64,000 nucleotides of DNA, taken from a virus. Shown here piece after piece: positions 4,265 through 61,928 of the stretch. The stretch lies in IMG/VR virus record IMGVR_UViG_3300027996_003225; one strand, 5' to 3'. Within the stretch, counting starts at the first letter, position 1; each line of letters begins with the position of its first letter. The notes beneath the pieces were generated by a model. The model worked only from the letters and a program-made list of their open reading frames with translations, searched no databases and was not told the origin of the DNA. Made by a program: the position numbers and the translations under genes.

Positions 4265-5254
4265 TTATACATCACTCTTTTTTTCTATCTTCAATAACTC
4301 AGAAAGAATCTCTTTATGTTTTTCAGATACTTTTTCAGGAACATCTAAAACTATCTTAATCAAAAGATTGCCTCTAACTTTTTGATTTTCCACAGAAGGC
4401 ATCCCTTGACCCTCCACTTTAAAAATCTGTCCAACTTTTGTGCCAGCAGGAATTTTTAACAACATGACAGAACCCAGTGTTCTTACCTCTACATGGCTTC
4501 CAAGAACAAGCTCTGCATACGAAGCTGATACCTCTGCCTCTAAATCTAAACCATTTGGGGCATAGGAAAAATAGTCATCTTCTCTTACCTTTATGGCAAT
4601 CAGCAAATCTCCAAAGCGACCATCAGGAGTTTCTTCTCCCTCGCCTTTCATCACAAGCTGACTCCCAGTCTGAACGCCAATTGGAATGTTAACTTTAAAG
4701 GTAAAATTCTCAACCCCATCATTGCCGCTCCCTCTACATTTGTCACATTTTTTAGAAGGCGTTTGACCTCTACCCTTGCAAACATTGCACTTGGCCTGTA
4801 AATTAAAAAATCCTTGCTGTATGTTTAAAACTCCCTTGCCGAGGCAGGTGCTACACGTTTTAAATTCTGTATAGCCCTCTGAGGAGCAGGATTTGCAAGG
4901 CTTGTTCTTCTCTACTTTTACATCTTTTTTACATCCTTGAAACGCATCTATCAGATCAATTTCTAATTCAACCAATATATGTTTAAGCGGTCTGACTTCC
5001 CAAGCTCTACGTCTAAAAGAAAACATGTCTCCGAACGAGCCAGAGACATGTCTATCGTATGAACGCCTTTTGATTGGATCTTTTAGAACATCGTATGCCC
5101 CACATATTGACTTGAACTTATTAGCAGCATCTGGGTCGTCAGGATTGGCATCAGGATGTGTCTGTCTGGCAAGGTTGCGATAAGCCTTATTGATTTCATC
5201 ATCGCCAGCATCTCTTGAGACGCCTAATATTTCGTAGTAATCAGGAGATGCCAT
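4265..5254 (-). CDS. dnaJ: Chaperone DnaJ
   Basis: J domain (DYYEILGV..HPD), four CxxCxGxG-type zinc motifs, C-terminal domain. Confidence 0.95.
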   Translation of the reverse strand: MASPDYYEILGVSRDAGDDEINKAYRNLARQTHPDANPDDPDAANKFKSICGAYDVLKDPIKRRSYDRHVSGSFGDMFSFRRRAWEVRPLKHILVELEIDLIDAFQGCKKDVKVEKNKPCKSCSSEGYTEFKTCSTCLGKGVLNIQQGFFNLQAKCNVCKGRGQTPSKKCDKCRGSGNDGVENFTFKVNIPIGVQTGSQLVMKGEGEETPDGRFGDLLIAIKVREDDYFSYAPNGLDLEAEVSASYAELVLGSHVEVRTLGSVMLLKIPAGTKVGQIFKVEGQGMPSVENQKVRGNLLIKIVLDVPEKVSEKHKEILSELLKIEKKSDV

Positions 5255-21160: not shown

Positions 21161-21181
21161 GAAATAATATAGTTAATAACT

Positions 21182-30284: not shown

Positions 30285-30318
30285 TAAAAAAGCTCCCCTC
30301 GCAATGCGAGGGGAGCTT
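30285..30318 (-). terminator. Intrinsic terminator downstream of tmRNA
   Basis: AAGCTCCCCTCGC-3 nt-GCGAGGGGAGCTT stem plus T-run on minus. Confidence 0.85.
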
Positions 30319-30321
30319 CAG

Positions 30322-30677
30322 TGGACCGGACGGGAGTCGAACCCGTGTGTTGCGCTACCTATTCAAAAGCGTCTACCTGTATAGTTTGATGTTTGAGTTT
30401 CGCATCATTAAACCACAACAAACAAAGGTTTAAATCAACTATCAAACAACGAGTCTTAGTTCAAAAGTAGTTTGATTTGCTTTGAACGCATCCAGTATTG
30501 CGGCAAGTTGTCAAACGTCACTGGCAGACCTTTGAAACTTGGGCTACTTATAATTAAGCAGCCATAGCGAAATTAGTTTTGTCAACTAAATTTTTAATCG
30601 GATTTTTAAGGAGCCTTCCGATCAACTCCTACAGGCAACTCAAGAACTCAACAGCCAATCGATACCATTTCCAGCCC
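30322..30677 (-). ncRNA. ssrA: tmRNA (356 nt), tag (A)DKTNFAMAA*; CCA not fully encoded
   Basis: 5' GGGCTGG pairs with 3' CCGGTCC-A including G3:U70; T-arm ACGGG-TTCGACT-CCCGT; UAGUU precedes resume codon; tag ORF 30554-30583. Confidence 0.95.
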
Positions 30678-34740: not shown

Positions 34741-35265
34741 TTAATCTTTCCATTGTTTCCATTTGCCCGTCTTTTCATTTTTAAAGTAAAAAGCAGCTTT
34801 TGGATCTTGTGTGTCTACCTTGAAGAAAGGCTCAGATCCTTTTCTGTTTCTGCACCACTTGTTTTCAACAGGCGACTCCAGCATGGCTTCACGATTTACA
34901 ATGAACAGCCTTTTGTAATCGCCCCCGATTATCATCATATGAGTGGCATGCTCTTCTGCTTTGTCCCTTTTGCGGTAAGGGAAGTCCATTGTATGAAATT
35001 TGAAAGGAACGTCAAACCATTTTGTTCCCCAATCTTGCTTTATCTCGGCCTCAATTCTCCATTCACCGATACTCTTTTTTGAATGCGTTCCAGCAACATC
35101 CCATATCTTTTTAAATTTTCCTCTGCTCTCGTCTAAGTTCTCTGATATTTTTTTGAATCCACGTTGTTGTAAAAATTCCGTTGCCACTAGCTTTGCAGGT
35201 CCATCATACTTTTCGTACCTATCTTTGCAAAACCTTATATCATTAGGTTTTGGCATCAAATACAT
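34741..35265 (-). CDS. Putative PD-(D/E)xK nuclease
   Basis: WDVAG..RIEAEIK (D..ExK). Confidence 0.5.
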   Translation of the reverse strand: MYLMPKPNDIRFCKDRYEKYDGPAKLVATEFLQQRGFKKISENLDESRGKFKKIWDVAGTHSKKSIGEWRIEAEIKQDWGTKWFDVPFKFHTMDFPYRKRDKAEEHATHMMIIGGDYKRLFIVNREAMLESPVENKWCRNRKGSEPFFKVDTQDPKAAFYFKNEKTGKWKQWKD

Positions 35266-35969
35266 TCCTTAAACTTAGAGCATCTCCTTATCTTTGCTAT
35301 AGTTTCGAAACCTTTGGTTCCCAAAATCCCATCAGCAAAGCCGTAGTACACTGCCTCTTCCGCAGACATGTACCAATCACTCTTATCCTTGAGCTTTTTA
35401 TCTATCCAAGATATAATTCGTGATTCTGTGTATTCTTTCTCTAAAAAGAACTCTCCAATCTTACAGCGTCTAGCAAATATTTGCAACATACGTTTCATAT
35501 ATTTATTATTCATTTCCACAGCGGAGTTTACAGCTATGGAGTTATCATGCAAAGCTATAGAACCATGGTGAATCATGAATTCACAATTAGGCGTTAAAAC
35601 TCTTTTATCAGCCGCTTGCAACAAAATTCCACTCATAGAAGAAGCTTGTGCATAAGTAACAAACGTGACTGATGAGTTTGCAAATCTAATTGCATCAAAC
35701 ATCGCTAACCCATCGCACCAACTTCCGCCAGTAGAATGCATGTGTACCAGTACGTTTTCAGAATTCTGATTCTCTAAAACAGATAAATTTTTATTAAATC
35801 TAACTGCCATTCTGTAATCTACACCTGGTTCGGAATCGTCAGACAAAGGGCTTAAAGAACTGTGCAGAAAGAGTTCTCTTGTATAGTGATTGATATTGTG
35901 AGAGTGAACATCGCTGAGAAGCTGTTCAATTTCCGACTTTTTACGCAAACTATTTTTCGTTGTAGCCAT
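35256..35969 (-). CDS. clpP: ClpP-like ATP-dependent protease proteolytic subunit
   Basis: HSTGGS, QASSMS (Ser), FMIHH (His), DWYMSAEEAVYYGFAD (Asp); GGAGG SD. Confidence 0.88.
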   Translation of the reverse strand: MATTKNSLRKKSEIEQLLSDVHSHNINHYTRELFLHSSLSPLSDDSEPGVDYRMAVRFNKNLSVLENQNSENVLVHMHSTGGSWCDGLAMFDAIRFANSSVTFVTYAQASSMSGILLQAADKRVLTPNCEFMIHHGSIALHDNSIAVNSAVEMNNKYMKRMLQIFARRCKIGEFFLEKEYTESRIISWIDKKLKDKSDWYMSAEEAVYYGFADGILGTKGFETIAKIRRCSKFKECI

Positions 35970-36080
35970 CGCAACCTCCAAAAAAGTCTTTATTTAATTC
36001 ACTATTATATATCTGATTTATATTCTATTTATCTTTTTTAACTTCCTTCCTAGGAAAATATTAAAACTATTAACTTCAAA

Positions 36081-54880: not shown

Positions 54881-55039
54881 CTAAGGCTTTACTTTTGATA
54901 ATCTGTCTTTTATTTTTTCCAAAAGAGGCTCTTCACTCTCGTCGTAATCACGCACGAGTGCCAAACCACCAAGAGCCTTCTTTAAAAAATCAATTTCTTC
55001 AGATCGAAGCATGACAGGGTAAACCATTACATTTTTCAT
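54881..55039 (-). CDS. Hypothetical protein
   Basis: Short ORF between ppiC and thyA. Confidence 0.45.
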   Translation of the reverse strand: MKNVMVYPVMLRSEEIDFLKKALGGLALVRDYDESEEPLLEKIKDRLSKVKP

Positions 55040-55040
55040 T

Positions 55041-55316
55041 TCAATCTCTGGCTGTGACTTGTAGCAGATGATAACCAAACTGCGTCTTCACTGGTCCTTG
55101 CACTTCGTTCAGGGGGCAGCTAAATACAACTTGATCAAACTCAGGAACCATTCTTCCTCTTCCAAAAGATCCTAGCCCACCACCAGTTTGACCTGATGGG
55201 CATTTTGAATAATCTTTGGCGGCTTGTCCAAAATCCGACCCAGATTCAATCTCTTTTTTCAGTTCTAAACATCGTGCCTCTGAGTCTACCAAAATATGTC
55301 TTGCAGTCGCTTGCAT
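55041..55316 (-). CDS. ppiC: Parvulin peptidyl-prolyl isomerase
   Basis: ARHILV, YSKCPSG..GG.LG.F..G.MVPEF, VKTQFGYH. Confidence 0.95.
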   Translation of the reverse strand: MQATARHILVDSEARCLELKKEIESGSDFGQAAKDYSKCPSGQTGGGLGSFGRGRMVPEFDQVVFSCPLNEVQGPVKTQFGYHLLQVTARD

Positions 55317-55345
55317 CTTAATTCTCTCTAAAGTTTAAAAAAAAA

Positions 55346-55400
55346 GACGCCCCAGAGGATTCGAACCCCAAAGCCCAGCATCTTGTGCTTGCTAGAGCGT
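55346..55400 (-). ncRNA. Minimal tRNA-like structure (acceptor stem, one hairpin, T-arm), probably the 3' end of a longer RNA
   Basis: ACGCTCTAG/CTGGGGCGT stem, GGGG-TTCGAAT-CCTC T-arm, T-run after; too short for a full cloverleaf. Confidence 0.55.
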
Positions 55401-55641
55401 TATGGGAATAATCGTTTTTCAAATGAATTGCTTCAAATGAAAGTTCGGCTTCCCAAACCGCTGACATTGTAGTGTCAGGTTTTCTAATATAATTATTTTT
55501 AACTTAAGTAATATTTAAAATCTTCTTTATAATTAATAAGCAAAAACAGTCTCCTGCCCTTTGGCAAGGATACTAGATCAGTGTTCCTGCGACGGTAATA
55601 ATATAGTAATCAATCAGAATAATCAATGCCGAATTGAAAAA

Positions 55642-56040
55642 TTACATGGGTGACTGAGAATCCAAGCCTTGCAGAAGTGCGGTGTTCAACTGATCAACAG
55701 GAATCGTATAAACTTTGTTATCTGGATCTTCATAAGCACTGACTCTGATTTGCTTTCCATCATCGTCTTTTTTAAACTTTTTCTTTGTTGTATCACTTGT
55801 ATCGTTCATCATCTGGATTTTAGCATGGGTTATATTTCCATCAGAATCACGATCATACCCTAAAATTTTATATCCAGATAGGTTATATGAATTTCCACCT
55901 ATAGAAAACTGAGAAATAGTCTGCGGACTGTCTGCAACTAGTTCAGGGGGTATTCCTAGCTCGTCTTCAATTTGGTTTAAATAATCTATTTTTTGTTTTT
56001 GATATTCCAAAAAATCTCTAAATGATAAATTGTTGTTCAT
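55642..56040 (-). CDS. Hypothetical protein with CTS-like N-terminus (MNNNLSFRDFLE)
   Basis: 132-aa ORF. Confidence 0.65.
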   Translation of the reverse strand: MNNNLSFRDFLEYQKQKIDYLNQIEDELGIPPELVADSPQTISQFSIGGNSYNLSGYKILGYDRDSDGNITHAKIQMMNDTSDTTKKKFKKDDDGKQIRVSAYEDPDNKVYTIPVDQLNTALLQGLDSQSPM

Positions 56041-56070
56041 GCCTTATATACTCTATGAGTAGATCTTTTT

Positions 56071-56439
56071 TTGAGAAACATTAATATGAATAAATCTCCT
56101 GCATTTTCTGAATTTAGAAATCTAATGGACACATGGGACAAACAAGTCCTCCATGAGAACACAATAGACAATTTTATAGATAAAAACGGCCTTTTATTAT
56201 TTTTCACAAAAGGAAAAAATTGCTTTGGAGCACCAGAGCAAAGCAGGTTAATTTTTGCAAAATTAAAATCCGATGATGAAGATTGCGAAGAAGACGGCTG
56301 GAGAGATGAAGCATCCTTCGCCGCATTAAATTTACAAGATGCACTAAACGGTGAAGAAAAACAGCATATTTTTTCTAATAGAGACTTGAATTCTATAAAG
56401 ATAATAGACAAACGTGCTCTTTACGAGAAGTTAAAATGA
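56071..56439 (+). CDS. Hypothetical protein
   Basis: 122-aa ORF coupled to next gene (ATGA overlap). Confidence 0.6.
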   Translation: MRNINMNKSPAFSEFRNLMDTWDKQVLHENTIDNFIDKNGLLLFFTKGKNCFGAPEQSRLIFAKLKSDDEDCEEDGWRDEASFAALNLQDALNGEEKQHIFSNRDLNSIKIIDKRALYEKLK

Positions 56440-58640: not shown

Positions 58641-59762
58641 ATGGCGACATTGGAAAACTGCTGCGGAGGAGGAGGAGGAGGAGGGGTAGACTCAAACTGC
58701 TGCGGTCCTTTTAGCCTCGGAACGCCTGGCAGTGGTTGGTCCTCTTGTTGCGACAACGTTTGTCCGCCACCCGTTTGCTGCTGTGGGAGCGTTACGTTCA
58801 ATTATCAATGCGGTGGAGGCGGAACTGGTGCGTCAGACTGCTACCCTGTAAACCCATGCGACCTCTGTCCTCCACCTTGTGAAGGTAGCCCGCCATCTTG
58901 TACTCCGCCATCATATGACCCGCCCGATTGCATTCCATCTTGCTGCCCGCCGTCGTATGACCCACCGTCGTATGATCCACCGTCATATGATCCACCGTCA
59001 TATGAAGATCCACCAATCACGTCCAGCGTAGCGTTGAGATTTCGGTCCATTCTGCCAGAGGGTCATCCTGATTACTCGAATAATAGGTCAAATCTATCCT
59101 ATGCCTTGGAAGATTTTCCAGGAATAGAAGATTTTACGAATAGTTATATTGGCATGGAAAACAACCCCAACTATACCAAATTCGCTCGTGAATCTGGTTC
59201 GCATTTGCCAAGCCGTGAATATATTTCCAGCGAGGATTCTTTTGAGTCTCTTGGAGCCATTCAGTCTCTTGAAGTCACTCCCAGTCCATCTGTTATTGAC
59301 CCGTCCTGTTGTTGCGACCCATGTACTTGTGCAACGACTAGTGTCACCGTGACTTTCTCAGGTTGCTGCCTGTATATTGATGGGTGCAGCATCACCACTG
59401 TTGGATCTGGAGACCTAACATGGAACTCAGCATTCACTGCTGGCAGTTGCAGTGGGACAGTTTCTGTAAACGGGGACTCATCAGGAAGTTTATCTGTCGC
59501 AGACGGCGAGTCAGTCAGCGTATCAATCAGTGGCGTCTCAGGTGATTGCTGCAATTGTGAATTAGTATCTCAAACAGGTTGTGGAATCGCATTTGACAAT
59601 AGCAACCTCTACTCTCTTGTAAACGGGAAGTTAGCGTTAAACAAAAAAGAGTACATGAAGCAAAGAAACGCCCTAATCAAACACAGAGCGGAAACGAAAC
59701 TCAGAAAATTATCCAAAGAAAGAAAGAATTCTTTGCTAAACAAAATCAGAAGAAGAAATTAA
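58641..59762 (+). CDS. Cys/Gly/Pro-rich repeat protein with basic C-terminal tail
   Basis: About 32 Cys, SYDPP repeats, Ser/Thr/Gly beta-like region, K/R-rich end. Confidence 0.7.
   Translation: MATLENCCGGGGGGGVDSNCCGPFSLGTPGSGWSSCCDNVCPPPVCCCGSVTFNYQCGGGGTGASDCYPVNPCDLCPPPCEGSPPSCTPPSYDPPDCIPSCCPPSYDPPSYDPPSYDPPSYEDPPITSSVALRFRSILPEGHPDYSNNRSNLSYALEDFPGIEDFTNSYIGMENNPNYTKFARESGSHLPSREYISSEDSFESLGAIQSLEVTPSPSVIDPSCCCDPCTCATTSVTVTFSGCCLYIDGCSITTVGSGDLTWNSAFTAGSCSGTVSVNGDSSGSLSVADGESVSVSISGVSGDCCNCELVSQTGCGIAFDNSNLYSLVNGKLALNKKEYMKQRNALIKHRAETKLRKLSKERKNSLLNKIRRRN
58950..59009 (+). repeat. 15-bp coding tandem repeat x4 (PSYDP)
   Basis: ccgtc(g/a)tatga(c/t)cca units; a fifth copy near 58908. 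Confidence 0.85.
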
Positions 59763-61789
59763 GTTATATCCTTTGCGCTTTGACAAATTTTATCTATAGA
59801 TTCCTTTTTCATGTTCAAAATAGATTGAACTTTTCCTTGATTTGAAGAAACATCTTTTGCGTTCTTTATCCCAGCCTTCCAGAGTTTCTCTGCTCTGACC
59901 TTTCCTATATTTGCAATCCCACAGAGGGAGAGCAAGTGTGGTTTGACTCCATAATTAATTCTTAAACTTAGAGTCTTAAACCAATCTTTTTTGTTCCACT
60001 TGCAATTCATTTGATCTATTGCCTGCAAGACCTGAATCATCCTTGGAGCATCCCATTGCAGAGTTTTTGAAACTCCAGATATACTTCCACCGTGAATCCC
60101 ATTCATGAGACAATAATACGCATATCCAAATTTTATCTCTGGGTCTTTGAACTGAAATCTGCCGTAAGATTTTTGAACCATGCTTTTAAAGCCAGCCATG
60201 TCTTTCTTTTCAGCATTACTTATGATTCCCGCTCTTGCATTTTCTACGTTAGCAAGAGCCATGGCCACTCTTAAATCATTGTCTTCATATCCGCCATCAA
60301 ACACATCTTTAAAGTTTCTTCTTAAATCAGCAACATCAAAAGGACTGAAGTAAAACAAAGAAGCAACTGTTCCAATGGCAGTGGCTTTATAGATGCCATT
60401 GTCTTCTTTTATTGCCCTGCATTTCAAAAGCATATCAATAGTAGAATCTGCTATTTGGTCATCTAGATCCTTCGCTTGAAAGGATGCCAAGCTTTTTTCG
60501 TACCACTTATGCAGATCTTTTTTATTCTTAATCGATCCGTGGTGAATTTCACTGACTAAATGAAAAGCAAGAGTCTTGTACTTAGCTTTTTTTCCATTTC
60601 CAACATGTTCTAATAATCTAGACTCAATTTTCTGATGTGCTTTTAATCTACTTCTATGCTTTTCTTCATTGTTGTGAGGCAGAAGTATATAAACATCTCC
60701 ACGAGGGTCATATCCAGGTCTGCCAGCACGCCCTGCCATCTGCCATATATCATACGTTGCAACCTCTTGCATACCCCTGTGTACTCCGAGAATTATGACT
60801 CTACGAGCAGGCATGTTGAGACCCCAAGCAAGAGTTGAAGTGGCAACAATTATTTGTAAATTTCCTTCACGAAATTTCTTTTCTACAGAATGCCTTTTGT
60901 TCTTATCTAAATCTGCGTTATGAAACTCTGCTTCATATCCAGCTTTCTCCAAAGCCTTTTTAACCATATGCCCCGTTCTTTTGGTATGGACAAAAACGAT
61001 AAACTTGTCTTCTTTATAGTCGTTTATGATATTCAGGGCAGAATTTAGTTTTTCCTCTTCTATAGACTCATACTTTCCTTGAGAAATATAAGATTCATAA
61101 TGCACGCCCAAAGGACACGGCCTATATTCCGATTCAATTAAATACGTTTCTTTGCCTGTAAGTTGGTAGCTGATCCACTCGGCTATTTCTCCAACATTAG
61201 GCATAGTAGCAGACAGAAAAACAACTCTAGCATTGGGGGCGACTTGAGTAAGCTTCATCAAGCCAACTTCTAAATGATCGCCCCTGCCTGGTACGGTCAA
61301 AAGATGAGACTCATCAACGACGAGCGTTCCTATGTCTTTGAGCCACTCATTGTTTTCAGATTTATTGTTCCTGCATCTGGAGTTCAACATCTCAGATGTC
61401 ATCAGAACTATGTCTGAATTTTCAAGCTCTTTTTTTCTGGCCGCTGTCAGTCTGTAGTCGCCTGTACAAATGGAAAGATTACAATCTGCAAAGTGGTGAT
61501 TGGGATCGGTCCAGTCGTCAATTTTCTCTTTAGCCAATGCTTTTAGAGGTGCTAAGAACATGGCCTTGCCGCCACGCTCTCTAATCTCATGAGCCATGAT
61601 CATTTCAGAGCATATGGTCTTTCCCGCTGATGTCTTTGCTGCAACGATGACGTTGCAATCCTTATCGAATAATTCAAATATCCGACTTTGAACCGGATTG
61701 AAATTTTCAAAAGGAAAGTTTGCGTATGAAGGATATTGCTCAGTAGGAACCAAATCATTTTGATCAGTCAGATTTTTGACTGGTGGCAC
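59759..61789 (-). CDS. Ski2/Hel308-like SF2 helicase
   Basis: TSAGKT, DESH, SAT, TLAWGLN, QMAGRAGRP, C-terminal HhH; GGAG SD before GTG. Confidence 0.9.
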   Translation of the reverse strand: MPPVKNLTDQNDLVPTEQYPSYANFPFENFNPVQSRIFELFDKDCNVIVAAKTSAGKTICSEMIMAHEIRERGGKAMFLAPLKALAKEKIDDWTDPNHHFADCNLSICTGDYRLTAARKKELENSDIVLMTSEMLNSRCRNNKSENNEWLKDIGTLVVDESHLLTVPGRGDHLEVGLMKLTQVAPNARVVFLSATMPNVGEIAEWISYQLTGKETYLIESEYRPCPLGVHYESYISQGKYESIEEEKLNSALNIINDYKEDKFIVFVHTKRTGHMVKKALEKAGYEAEFHNADLDKNKRHSVEKKFREGNLQIIVATSTLAWGLNMPARRVIILGVHRGMQEVATYDIWQMAGRAGRPGYDPRGDVYILLPHNNEEKHRSRLKAHQKIESRLLEHVGNGKKAKYKTLAFHLVSEIHHGSIKNKKDLHKWYEKSLASFQAKDLDDQIADSTIDMLLKCRAIKEDNGIYKATAIGTVASLFYFSPFDVADLRRNFKDVFDGGYEDNDLRVAMALANVENARAGIISNAEKKDMAGFKSMVQKSYGRFQFKDPEIKFGYAYYCLMNGIHGGSISGVSKTLQWDAPRMIQVLQAIDQMNCKWNKKDWFKTLSLRINYGVKPHLLSLCGIANIGKVRAEKLWKAGIKNAKDVSSNQGKVQSILNMKKESIDKICQSAKDIT

Positions 61790-61814: not shown

Positions 61815-61928
61815 ACTCACAGAGTCGGGAATCGAACCCGAATTAGGGAATGACCCTTTACAGATCCACTATCGACGCTCGTGCCACACGATATAGGGTA
61901 TTGAACCTTACACGCCGCATCTGTGAGC
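61815..61928 (-). ncRNA. 114-nt tRNA-like structured RNA with two T-loop hairpins
   Basis: Terminal stem GCTCACAGA/TCTGTGAGT, TAAGG-TTCAATA-CCCTA, GAT-AGTGG-ATC, TCGGG-TTCGATT-CCCGA, then T-run. Confidence 0.65.

Follow-up and report, generated by a model that had tools for sequence, protein, structure and literature searches.

An anticodon-less, tRNA-like three-way junction conserved directly upstream of ppiC in a clade of huge phages, with relatives in marine Planctomycetaceae

The punctuation of transcripts by tRNA-shaped structures is well established in organelles, where it is known from the t-elements, and in vertebrate nuclei, where it is known from mascRNA. In bacteria and phages, such punctuation is, to our knowledge, represented mainly by real tRNAs or by isolated cases. 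Phages also encode tRNA-like stable RNAs, and the species 1 and 2 RNAs of phage T4 are presumably kin by type to the element described here. The t-elements of plant mitochondria carry a GGTTCRANYCC motif and are located upstream of genes, where cuts by RNase Z and RNase P make the mRNA ends; the 5′ end of the mRNA is formed by these cuts, and the leader RNA gains a non-templated C or CA (PMC1920247). mascRNA serves as a handle for RNase P, RNase Z and CCA addition, which makes the 3′ end of the RNA upstream of it. For this, RNase P and RNase Z read an elbow consisting of the T-loop and two guanines of the D-loop, which serves as the reference point of their distance measurement (PMC11693755). 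RNase Z cleaves CCA-less precursors after the discriminator and is inhibited by C residues that follow the discriminator (PMC7479834).

The element in question is encoded on a stretch of viral DNA with a length of 64,000 nucleotides (IMG/VR record IMGVR_UViG_3300027996_003225), which is called the window in the following. The source of the window is a huge phage whose DnaE-type polymerase is split over two genes and whose closest phage relative is the 595-kb uncultured phage LR756511. The window also holds a tmRNA and a group I intron as well as genes for DnaJ, ClpP, methionine aminopeptidase, ThyA, DHFR and GMP reductase. No tRNA-processing enzymes were detected by Pfam among the 30 larger or neighbouring ORFs of the window that were scanned. 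On the minus strand, a gap of 325 nt separates an ORF of 132 aa (55642-56040) from the gene ppiC, and the element is located at the ppiC-proximal side of this gap. Our main reading of the element has two parts. We are confident, with a probability of roughly 0.85, that it is a conserved, anticodon-less tRNA-like three-way junction forming the 3′ end of a structured leader RNA that is tied to ppiC. By analogy with t-elements and mascRNA, we further propose, at a tentative probability of about 0.45, that this junction acts in cis by mimicking the upper half of a tRNA; it may form the 3′ end of the upstream RNA via termination and/or RNase P, RNase Z and CCA addition and may thereby set off the ppiC mRNA. 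The module is a new RNA family. The features of the module and its gene are as follows:

55400-55394, minus strand: 5′ strand of P1 (ACGCUCU), the acceptor-like stem; pairs with 55347-55353 at 7/7 positions; helix found by RNAalifold
55393-55371 (23 nt), minus strand: P2, the single hairpin between the P1 strand and the T-arm
55370-55354, minus strand: P3, the T-arm mimic UGGGG-UUCGAAU-CCUCU, with GGUUCGAAUCC at 55357-55367
55353-55347, minus strand: 3′ strand of P1 (GGGGCGU), 7/7 paired
55346, minus strand: C at the discriminator or C74 position, invariant in all 8 homologues
55345-55337, minus strand: nine U, a terminator tail and/or tRNA-style 3′ trailer; a U-rich run is present in all 8 homologues
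about 55324-55329, minus strand: ribosome-binding site of ppiC (AGAGAG), between the U-run and the ATG
55041-55316, minus strand: ppiC, encoding a parvulin-type PPIase of 91 aa (Pfam Rotamase_3, 4.7e-21)

The module (55346-55400, minus strand) is a three-way junction formed by P1, P2 and P3, followed by the C and the nine U. P2 consists of an outer helix (AGC/GCU), an inner helix (AGCA/UGCU) and a CAAGA loop and is followed by one linker U. Its internal loop places an A opposite a GG (55375-55376), and this sequence arrangement suggests that the GG could dock on the T-loop like G18/G19 of a tRNA. GGUUCGAAUCC directly abuts the P1 stem of 7 bp, which is the canonical arrangement of T-arm and acceptor; the bacterial homologues lack it. 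An exact GGTTCGAATCC occurs once in the window, while four matches, compared to 0.73 expected, are found at <=1 mismatch; among the additional matches are the tmRNA and a further tRNA-like element. The original prediction, made from this DNA alone, had described an acceptor stem, a single hairpin and a T-arm followed by nine T, with no room for both D and anticodon arms. This description holds, as P1 is fully paired and only 23 nt with one hairpin lie between the acceptor strand and the T-arm, which is incompatible with a tRNA cloverleaf. P1 opens with an A-U pair, preceded by an A at position -1; both features are atypical of tRNAs and of good bacterial RNase P sites and speak against processing of the tRNA type.

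The U-run ends 20 nt upstream of the ppiC ATG, and the ribosome-binding site alone is located in between. Across all copies, this distance is 20-37 nt and harbours only a ribosome-binding site in each case. As this leaves no space for a promoter, ppiC must be transcribed through the element, which adjoins the 5′ side of ppiC in the window as it does in every homologue.

The element does not belong to any of the related families that were searched. ARAGORN found no tRNA in the window, and for 55200-55750 no match to tRNA (RF00005), tmRNA or YrlA (RF02553) was obtained from Rfam at E<=10. The only related Rfam match was to mascRNA-menRNA (RF01684); with 13.8 bits and E=8 it remains below the gathering score of 42.5, so that the element is not assigned to this family. 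It is not a YrlA RNA either, as its acceptor end is open and constitutes the 3′ terminus of the structure. The sequence features of a t-element are present, with the GGTTCRANYCC motif and the fold being located 20 nt before the ppiC start, and this applies likewise to the homologous phage loci. The sequence of an intrinsic terminator is also present, with a terminator scan calling 55374-55349 plus the T-run, and in all homologues P1 is followed by C and 5-9 U.

Searches with the two proteins that flank the element, together with one pattern scan of metagenomes, led to the homologous loci. They represent four further phage lineages and two marine species of Planctomycetaceae, in which the element is encoded at the equivalent position. 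The phage homologues are located on contigs with ppiC-thyA synteny. One locus (L009) is identical to the window. L044 (WLWF01008096), which has about 95% identity to the window, was the sole return of the metagenome pattern scan. In L010/L011, the upstream protein is 56% and the PPIase 93% identical. The PPIase of L055, whose 5′ end is cut, has 89% identity, and that of L145-L147 has 79% identity and is followed by thyA, matching the gene order of the window. The synteny of the window is also found in a lineage (P0002) with an upstream protein of 84% identity. In the two bacterial species, the copies are located directly 5′ of ppiC (L045/L046 in genome G155, L047-L057 in genome G001), the ppiC neighbours are ordinary chromosomal genes encoding a GDSL lipase and ferritin, and the 132-aa ORF is missing from these loci. 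In a different phage (L006), a real tRNA-Pro gene is located directly upstream of a PPIase gene.

A covariance model of the element (R1) scored the window's copy with 74 bits and the homologues with 34-76 bits. In the planctomycetes, it detected one copy per genome, in G001 and G155 only, while neither 150 genomes from the same order nor 38 additional relatives within the Planctomycetes gave a match. Likewise, the model had no match upstream of ppiC in 80 other bacterial loci and no match in the 595-kb phage LR756511 or in three IMG/VR contigs. A blastn search with 55000-56100 against the phage collection returned no match, and scans of IMG/VR with patterns derived from the element returned no homologue. 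Matches to the model with 25-29 bits in IMG/VR were rejected because they are the 3′ halves of tRNA-Arg(UCU) at prophage att sites, ending with GCCA. As the matches to the model are confined to a few genomes, the RNA family is narrow. In one metatranscriptome run (X20), a single contig was found that covers only 55767-56001, within the upstream ORF and without the element; three DNA runs added no variants.

The conservation of the module follows its helices. RNAalifold recovered P1 and P3 independently. In P1, 96% of the cells are paired across the 8 sequences, and two pairs have changed on both sides. For P1 and P3 together, 92% of the cells are paired across the 8 sequences compared to 30-68% with slid partners, three pairs have changes on both sides, and the covariation score, which derives from only about 7 independent sequences, is 0.247 compared to 0.172+-0.028 in shuffles and was reached by 8/500 of these. 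The stem of P3 covaries between G-C, A-U and G-U, and despite these changing stems GGUUCGAAUCC is invariant in the window's copy, L044, L055, L010 and L145. The GG at the 3′ side of P2 is retained in all 5 phage lineages. When folded alone, P2 adopts one topology in the window's copy, L044, L055, L145 and L045 with unrelated helix sequences. The outer helix has 3-4 bp and is separated from the inner helix of 4-6 bp by an internal loop in which 1-2 nt of the 5′ side face GG of the 3′ side. The terminal loop has 3-5 nt and is larger and less regular in L145. In L010, P2 is a stem of 3 bp with a loop of 9 nt that still contains GG and resembles a D-arm. MAFFT was unable to align P2 between phages and bacteria. 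The original prediction of a structured non-coding RNA with an anticodon-less tRNA-like 3′ module, for which a homologue search with covariation analysis had been suggested as a check, is thus borne out by conservation and covarying stems in 5 phage lineages and 2 bacterial species.

These alignments also bear on a possible coding function. The original prediction had regarded the region as free of ORFs, which is incorrect, as an ORF of 49 aa (55318-55467, minus strand) spans the element. If this ORF encoded a protein, the RNA structure would be incidental. The window and L044 (50 aa) both have an open frame, and an ORF of 49 aa was called at the equivalent place in the lineage with the 84%-identical upstream protein. 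However, the frame is cut short by a stop after 18 codons in L010 and 14 codons in L145, indels of +2/+1 in L044 shift the middle 15 codons to another frame, and conservation tracks the helices rather than codons. As the ORF is not conserved, the region is regarded as RNA and not as protein, and a coding function is scarcely credible.

As a second alternative, the element could be what remains, without function, of a tRNA gene or a tRNA-derived att site after loss of the D or the anticodon arm. In favour of this, the 3′ half of the element agrees at 21/24 positions with the 3′ end of tRNA-Arg(ACG) of G001 in the window's copy, a tRNA-Pro gene precedes the L006 PPIase gene, and the att-site tRNA halves give weak matches to the model (25-29 bits). 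Mimicry of one specific host tRNA had also been considered for the 21/24 match and was rejected, as the other lineages reach 17-18/24, which is the level of a generic T-arm; the same numbers speak against a relic. Furthermore, compensatory changes occurred in 7 lineages and purifying selection acts even in the bacteria, neither ARAGORN nor Rfam provided a tRNA match, and the P2 loops of 3-5 nt fit neither a D loop nor an anticodon loop after a simple deletion. Among 60 bacterial ppiC loci, there was no tRNA on the same strand directly upstream; the only two tRNA genes detected (L077) are encoded on the opposite strand. The element is not a decaying pseudo-tRNA, an outcome that would have overturned the original prediction; it is conserved with covariation, by which the relic reading is largely refuted, and we regard it as very improbable.

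Caution as to a tRNA-like function is called for by the bacterial copies. Their P3 loop is UUCGGAG, UGCCGAG or UGCUGAG and, hence, no T-loop. The function that is common to all copies is therefore independent of the T-loop, and a role as terminator or leader must be part of the explanation. Between the two planctomycete species, the module has 80.6% identity, compared to 55-63% in other intergenic regions and 84-85% in coding regions, which indicates that the stems and the U-run are under selection in the bacteria without a T-loop. Termination, or a structure in the ppiC leader, is the simplest role that all copies could share.

The 3′ ends of the copies were compared with the end of a tRNA. 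T stem and P1 together have about 12 bp in the window's copy, L010 and L145, which is the length of an acceptor/T stack. In every copy, the stem is followed by U or A, by C and then by a U-rich run. L145, with a T stem of 5 bp, a stem of 7 bp, A, C and UUAUUUU, fits a tRNA-like end exactly. In L044, L055, L045 and L047, however, 1-2 extra nt between P3 and P1 interrupt the 3′ strand, which would be continuous in a true acceptor/T stack.

The element could be regarded as an ordinary Rho-independent terminator or attenuator, if a branched one, that forms part of the ppiC leader, with ppiC being expressed by read-through and the likeness to a T-loop having no function. This alternative is the one to be taken most seriously, and we regard it as less likely than the proposed tRNA mimic. 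Its strength is that the C and the U-run after the GC-rich base of P1 (ACGC/GCGU) are the most conserved feature, present in 8/8 homologues including the bacteria that have no T-loop, and that the terminator scan calls a site at the element. In addition, an alternative extended P3 hairpin beside the U-run can form in the window's copy, L010 and L145. Another terminator of the phage is located just 34 nt before a gene start, so that the layout is normal for this phage; the architecture of the element is not. The other terminators of the phage are plain GC-rich hairpins of 8-12 bp, and for this reason the element is counted as more than a terminator. Termination does not call for a three-way junction, for a P2 whose internal loop is conserved or for a loop-and-closing sequence of 11 nt that is invariant in 5 phage lineages despite stem changes. 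No conserved antiterminator was found on the alignment. The only candidate, an antiterminator or pseudoknot pairing formed by the 5′ half of H2 (see below) and the 5′ flank/ACGC of P1, which appeared in the minimum free energy folds of the window's copy, L010 and L145, was rejected, as it was 75% paired and this was reached by 231/500 shuffles.

Upstream of the module, the gap contains further elements:

55626-55598, minus strand: putative promoter-like site TTGATT-N17-TATTAT, containing the ACTATATTATT motif; consensus match
55570-55552, minus strand: H0, a terminator-like hairpin (UCCUUGCC-AAAG-GGCAGGA) with a short U-run; from sequence and terminator scan
55491-55486, minus strand: -10-like box TATATT, a candidate promoter 8 nt before H1; consensus match
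55478-55461, minus strand: H1, CUGACA/UGUCAG; kept in the window's copy, L044, L010 and L145
55460-55446, minus strand: H2, CGGUUU-GGGA-AGCCG; kept in the window's copy, L044, L010 and L145

The promoter-like motif ACTATATTATT at 55597-55607 was predicted to be identical to 21163-21173, and both occurrences were found, compared to 0.07 expected. L010 has a counterpart of the promoter-like site, TTGATT-N17-TATATT. The predicted hairpins TCCTTGCC/GGCAGGA, CTGACA/TGTCAG and CGGTTT/AAGCCG are all encoded on the minus strand. H0 probably ends the transcript of the upstream gene; L010 and L145 have a hairpin of other sequence at its position. A TATATT or TAATAT is located at the equivalent place in the window's copy, L044, L010 and L145 (alignment A2). 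H1 shows one compensatory change from G-C to A-U, and the conservation of H1 and H2 refers to the four phage lineages for which DNA is available there. The bacterial spacers contain possible traces of H1 and H2, but the similarity is too weak to support a claim. The predicted direct repeat TTCATTTGAA is present twice (55432-55441 and 55418-55427), as described, but at 0.98 expected occurrences this is not above chance, and the repeat is not conserved in the relatives. Instead of the single length of ~240 nt proposed originally, these motifs offer two candidate 5′ ends: transcription from the promoter-like site at 55626-55598, which is followed by H0, would yield an RNA of about 250 nt and transcription from the TATATT box one of about 140 nt.

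Such an RNA might also act in trans. According to this alternative, the element belongs to a small phage RNA whose tRNA-like end binds or titrates a host factor that reads the elbow or the acceptor, with processing or modification enzymes, a tRNA-sensing defence or a toxin as candidate targets, and the location next to ppiC is mere linkage. The conservation of H1 and H2 in the phage lineages together with the -10-like box agrees with this proposal, as does the fact that the T-loop and the GG are conserved in phages only, which fits a role in infection. On the other hand, the element always lies directly before ppiC, moved to bacteria together with ppiC and is still under selection there, and it has no consistently adjacent partner gene, as the 132-aa ORF is missing from the bacterial loci. 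Action as a decoy for anticodon nucleases, as originally suggested, can be ruled out, since the element lacks an anticodon arm and its P2 loops have 3-5 nt. Overall, we regard a purely trans-acting small RNA as improbable.

A role as handle for RNase P, RNase Z and CCA addition is plausible on sequence grounds because of the stack of about 12 bp, the canonical T-loop, the possible elbow formed with the GG and the host-like N73-C-U-rich end. The latter resembles the tRNA genes of the planctomycete G001, of which 0/32 encode CCA, while all encode N73-C74 and, in most cases, a U-rich trailer. The same order, N73-C-U-rich, is found at the 3′ end of the element as in these CCA-less tRNA genes. The C that follows the discriminator in all copies, where it would be expected to inhibit RNase Z, speaks against this role, although all host tRNA genes carry it, too.

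For the proposed cis-acting tRNA mimic, the following sequence of events is conceivable. H1, H2 and the junction would be transcribed towards ppiC as a leader or small RNA, and P1 together with the U-tract would stop part of the transcription. Alternatively or additionally, the tRNA-maturation enzymes of the host might recognize the tRNA-like elbow. RNase P would then cut at the 5′ side of P1 and RNase Z after the discriminator, before the CCA-adding enzyme extends the new 3′ end. The upstream RNA could thereby gain a defined and protected 3′ end, and transcripts reading through into ppiC would be set free as mRNA whose short 5′ leader starts at the U-run. The cassette may have been exchanged between the huge-phage clade and a genus of marine Planctomycetaceae, in which the T-loop would have drifted. 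In a more far-reaching version, which we consider a long shot, the released CCA-tailed mimic of 55 nt, tailored to its host, would itself act in trans on a reader of the elbow or acceptor during infection of marine Planctomycetes, its excision would switch on ppiC, and the mobility of the cassette would provide the link to the host.

The RNA and ppiC travel as one cassette, which has crossed between phage and bacterium. In a quick tree of PpiC (93 columns), the phage sequences, G001/G155 and P0011/P0026 are split from 123 others with SH-aLRT values of 95-96, and other Planctomycetota are placed elsewhere. The tree gives no order among the phage, G001/G155 and P0011/P0026 groups and, hence, no direction of transfer. 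The tmRNA gene of the phage ends with ...UCCAC-U, and its tag DKTNFAMAA is similar to the tag ANDNFALAA of G001. Based on the shared cassette and the likeness of the tmRNA, the host would be assigned to the Planctomycetaceae.

It is unusual to find a compact, conserved, anticodon-less element immediately upstream of a chaperone gene of host origin in a huge phage, and also unusual that its 3′ end reproduces the CCA-less N73-C-U ending seen in the tRNA genes of a planctomycete that shares the element. If the processing function applies, phages would use host tRNA-maturation enzymes to shape their mRNAs, and the module would be a small, portable part for RNA processing and termination. The shared cassette of RNA and ppiC would, in that case, tie an uncultured clade of marine huge phages to hosts from the Planctomycetaceae. 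If the element is only a terminator, it is an unusual, branched one and of limited interest.

Among the known systems, the t-elements (Forner et al. 2007, PMC1920247) resemble the element in that they are non-decoding, combine a GGTTCRANYCC T-arm with an acceptor-like stem and are located just before a protein gene. They are, however, organellar, derive from degenerate cloverleaves and have no sequence homology with the phage element. The phage and bacterial element, in contrast, is a three-way junction of about 55 nt with a U-run that could terminate transcription. mascRNA and menRNA, the 3′ modules of MALAT1 and NEAT1, are of similar size (58-61 nt compared to 55 nt), and mascRNA and the element have in common an acceptor stem, an arm with a canonical T-loop, two conserved guanines and the lack of a usable anticodon. 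mascRNA differs in being a vertebrate, nuclear RNA with a four-arm cloverleaf including an anticodon-like stem, whereas the element has three helices and a U-run and precedes a gene.

The species 1 and 2 RNAs of T4 and the mimics of the YrlA type (PMC4201824) share with the element an acceptor, a T-arm and an elbow without decoding. The phage stable RNAs and the YrlA mimics are located in tRNA clusters or beside Ro60 or DUF7873 genes. In YrlA, which is circularly permuted, the acceptor end is closed, while that of the element is open at the 3′ side. Unlike the phage stable RNAs, the element lies outside tRNA clusters, continues into a terminator-like U-run and is always tied to ppiC. Finally, Rho-independent terminators and attenuators have in common with the element a GC-rich stem that is followed by a U-tract, here at 20-37 nt before a gene. 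They differ from it in that the 'hairpin' of the element is a three-way junction with the T-arm of a tRNA and a conserved internal loop.

The ppiC genes of two marine Planctomycetaceae species, represented by the genomes G001 and G155 (loci L045-L057), are 80% identical to the phage ppiC, and in both species the same RNA module is found upstream of the gene. In the ppiC tree, the genes of other Planctomycetota are placed elsewhere, apart from those of G001 and G155. Taken together, this degree of identity, the common module and the tree position of the other Planctomycetota indicate a transfer of ppiC with its module between phage and bacterium. The tmRNA tags are also alike, with DKTNFAMAA in the phage and ANDNFALAA in G001. 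Together with the ppiC gene and module common to both, this similarity suggests that the host of the huge phage is a planctomycete. In G001, none of the 32 tRNA genes read (L270-L298) encodes CCA. C74 is encoded in all of them, C74 together with C75 in one, and a U-rich trailer lies behind most of these genes.

Further tRNA or tRNA-like ends were found in the window and at two other loci:

61816-61928, minus strand: another tRNA-like RNA, about 113 nt long, with stem, T-arm and U-run in the window sequence
L008:5040-5212: tRNA-like end at a contig edge, with stem, small hairpin and T-arm
L006:2005-2082: genuine tRNA-Pro(UGG), directly upstream of a PPIase gene

In the second tRNA-like RNA of the window, the terminal stem is formed by CUCACAG/CUGUGAG, and the T-arm, UCGGG-UUCGAUU-CCCGA, is perfect. 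This structure is followed by UUUUU. About 25 nt past this U-run lie the ribosome-binding site and GTG start of a DEAD-box helicase gene (59759-61789). The helicase locus and the ppiC locus share one order: tRNA-like element, U-run, gene. The predicted fold of this RNA has a z-score of -2.4, and ARAGORN called no tRNA in it.

L008 is a more distant relative, whose upstream protein is 45% identical to that of the window. Its element consists of the stem CGGCCC/GGGCCG, the small hairpin and the T-arm AUCAGG-UUCGAUU-CCUGAU, and the contig stops at this element. Ahead of the element stands GGUUUGGCGAAGCC, a sequence similar to H2, the conserved hairpin upstream of the ppiC module; a search with R1, the covariance model of this module, did not match the tRNA-like end. 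The PPIase of L006, an unrelated IMG/VR phage contig, is 50% identical to that of the window. The tRNA-Pro(UGG) was rejected as a homologue of the module and judged to be a chance placement of a phage tRNA.

The following further features of the window were considered:

608-1366: M24 methionine aminopeptidase gene
4265-5254: DnaJ gene
21163-21173, minus strand: second copy of ACTATATTATT, 3 nt upstream of the ATG of an ORF
30286-30316, minus strand: classical terminator after the tmRNA, with an 11-bp stem, nine G-C pairs and six T
30319-30677: tmRNA of the phage
35256-35981: ClpP gene
55041-55316: PpiC gene

DnaJ, ClpP, the aminopeptidase and PpiC form a set of protein-folding and -processing genes. 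The ORF behind the second ACTATATTATT (about 21159-20976) encodes a Cys-rich protein of about 61 amino acids. If ACTATATTATT acts as a -10-type promoter element, the mRNA of this ORF would be nearly leaderless.

In contrast to the tmRNA, which has a separate terminator hairpin, the acceptor-like stem of the ppiC module directly adjoins the U-run.
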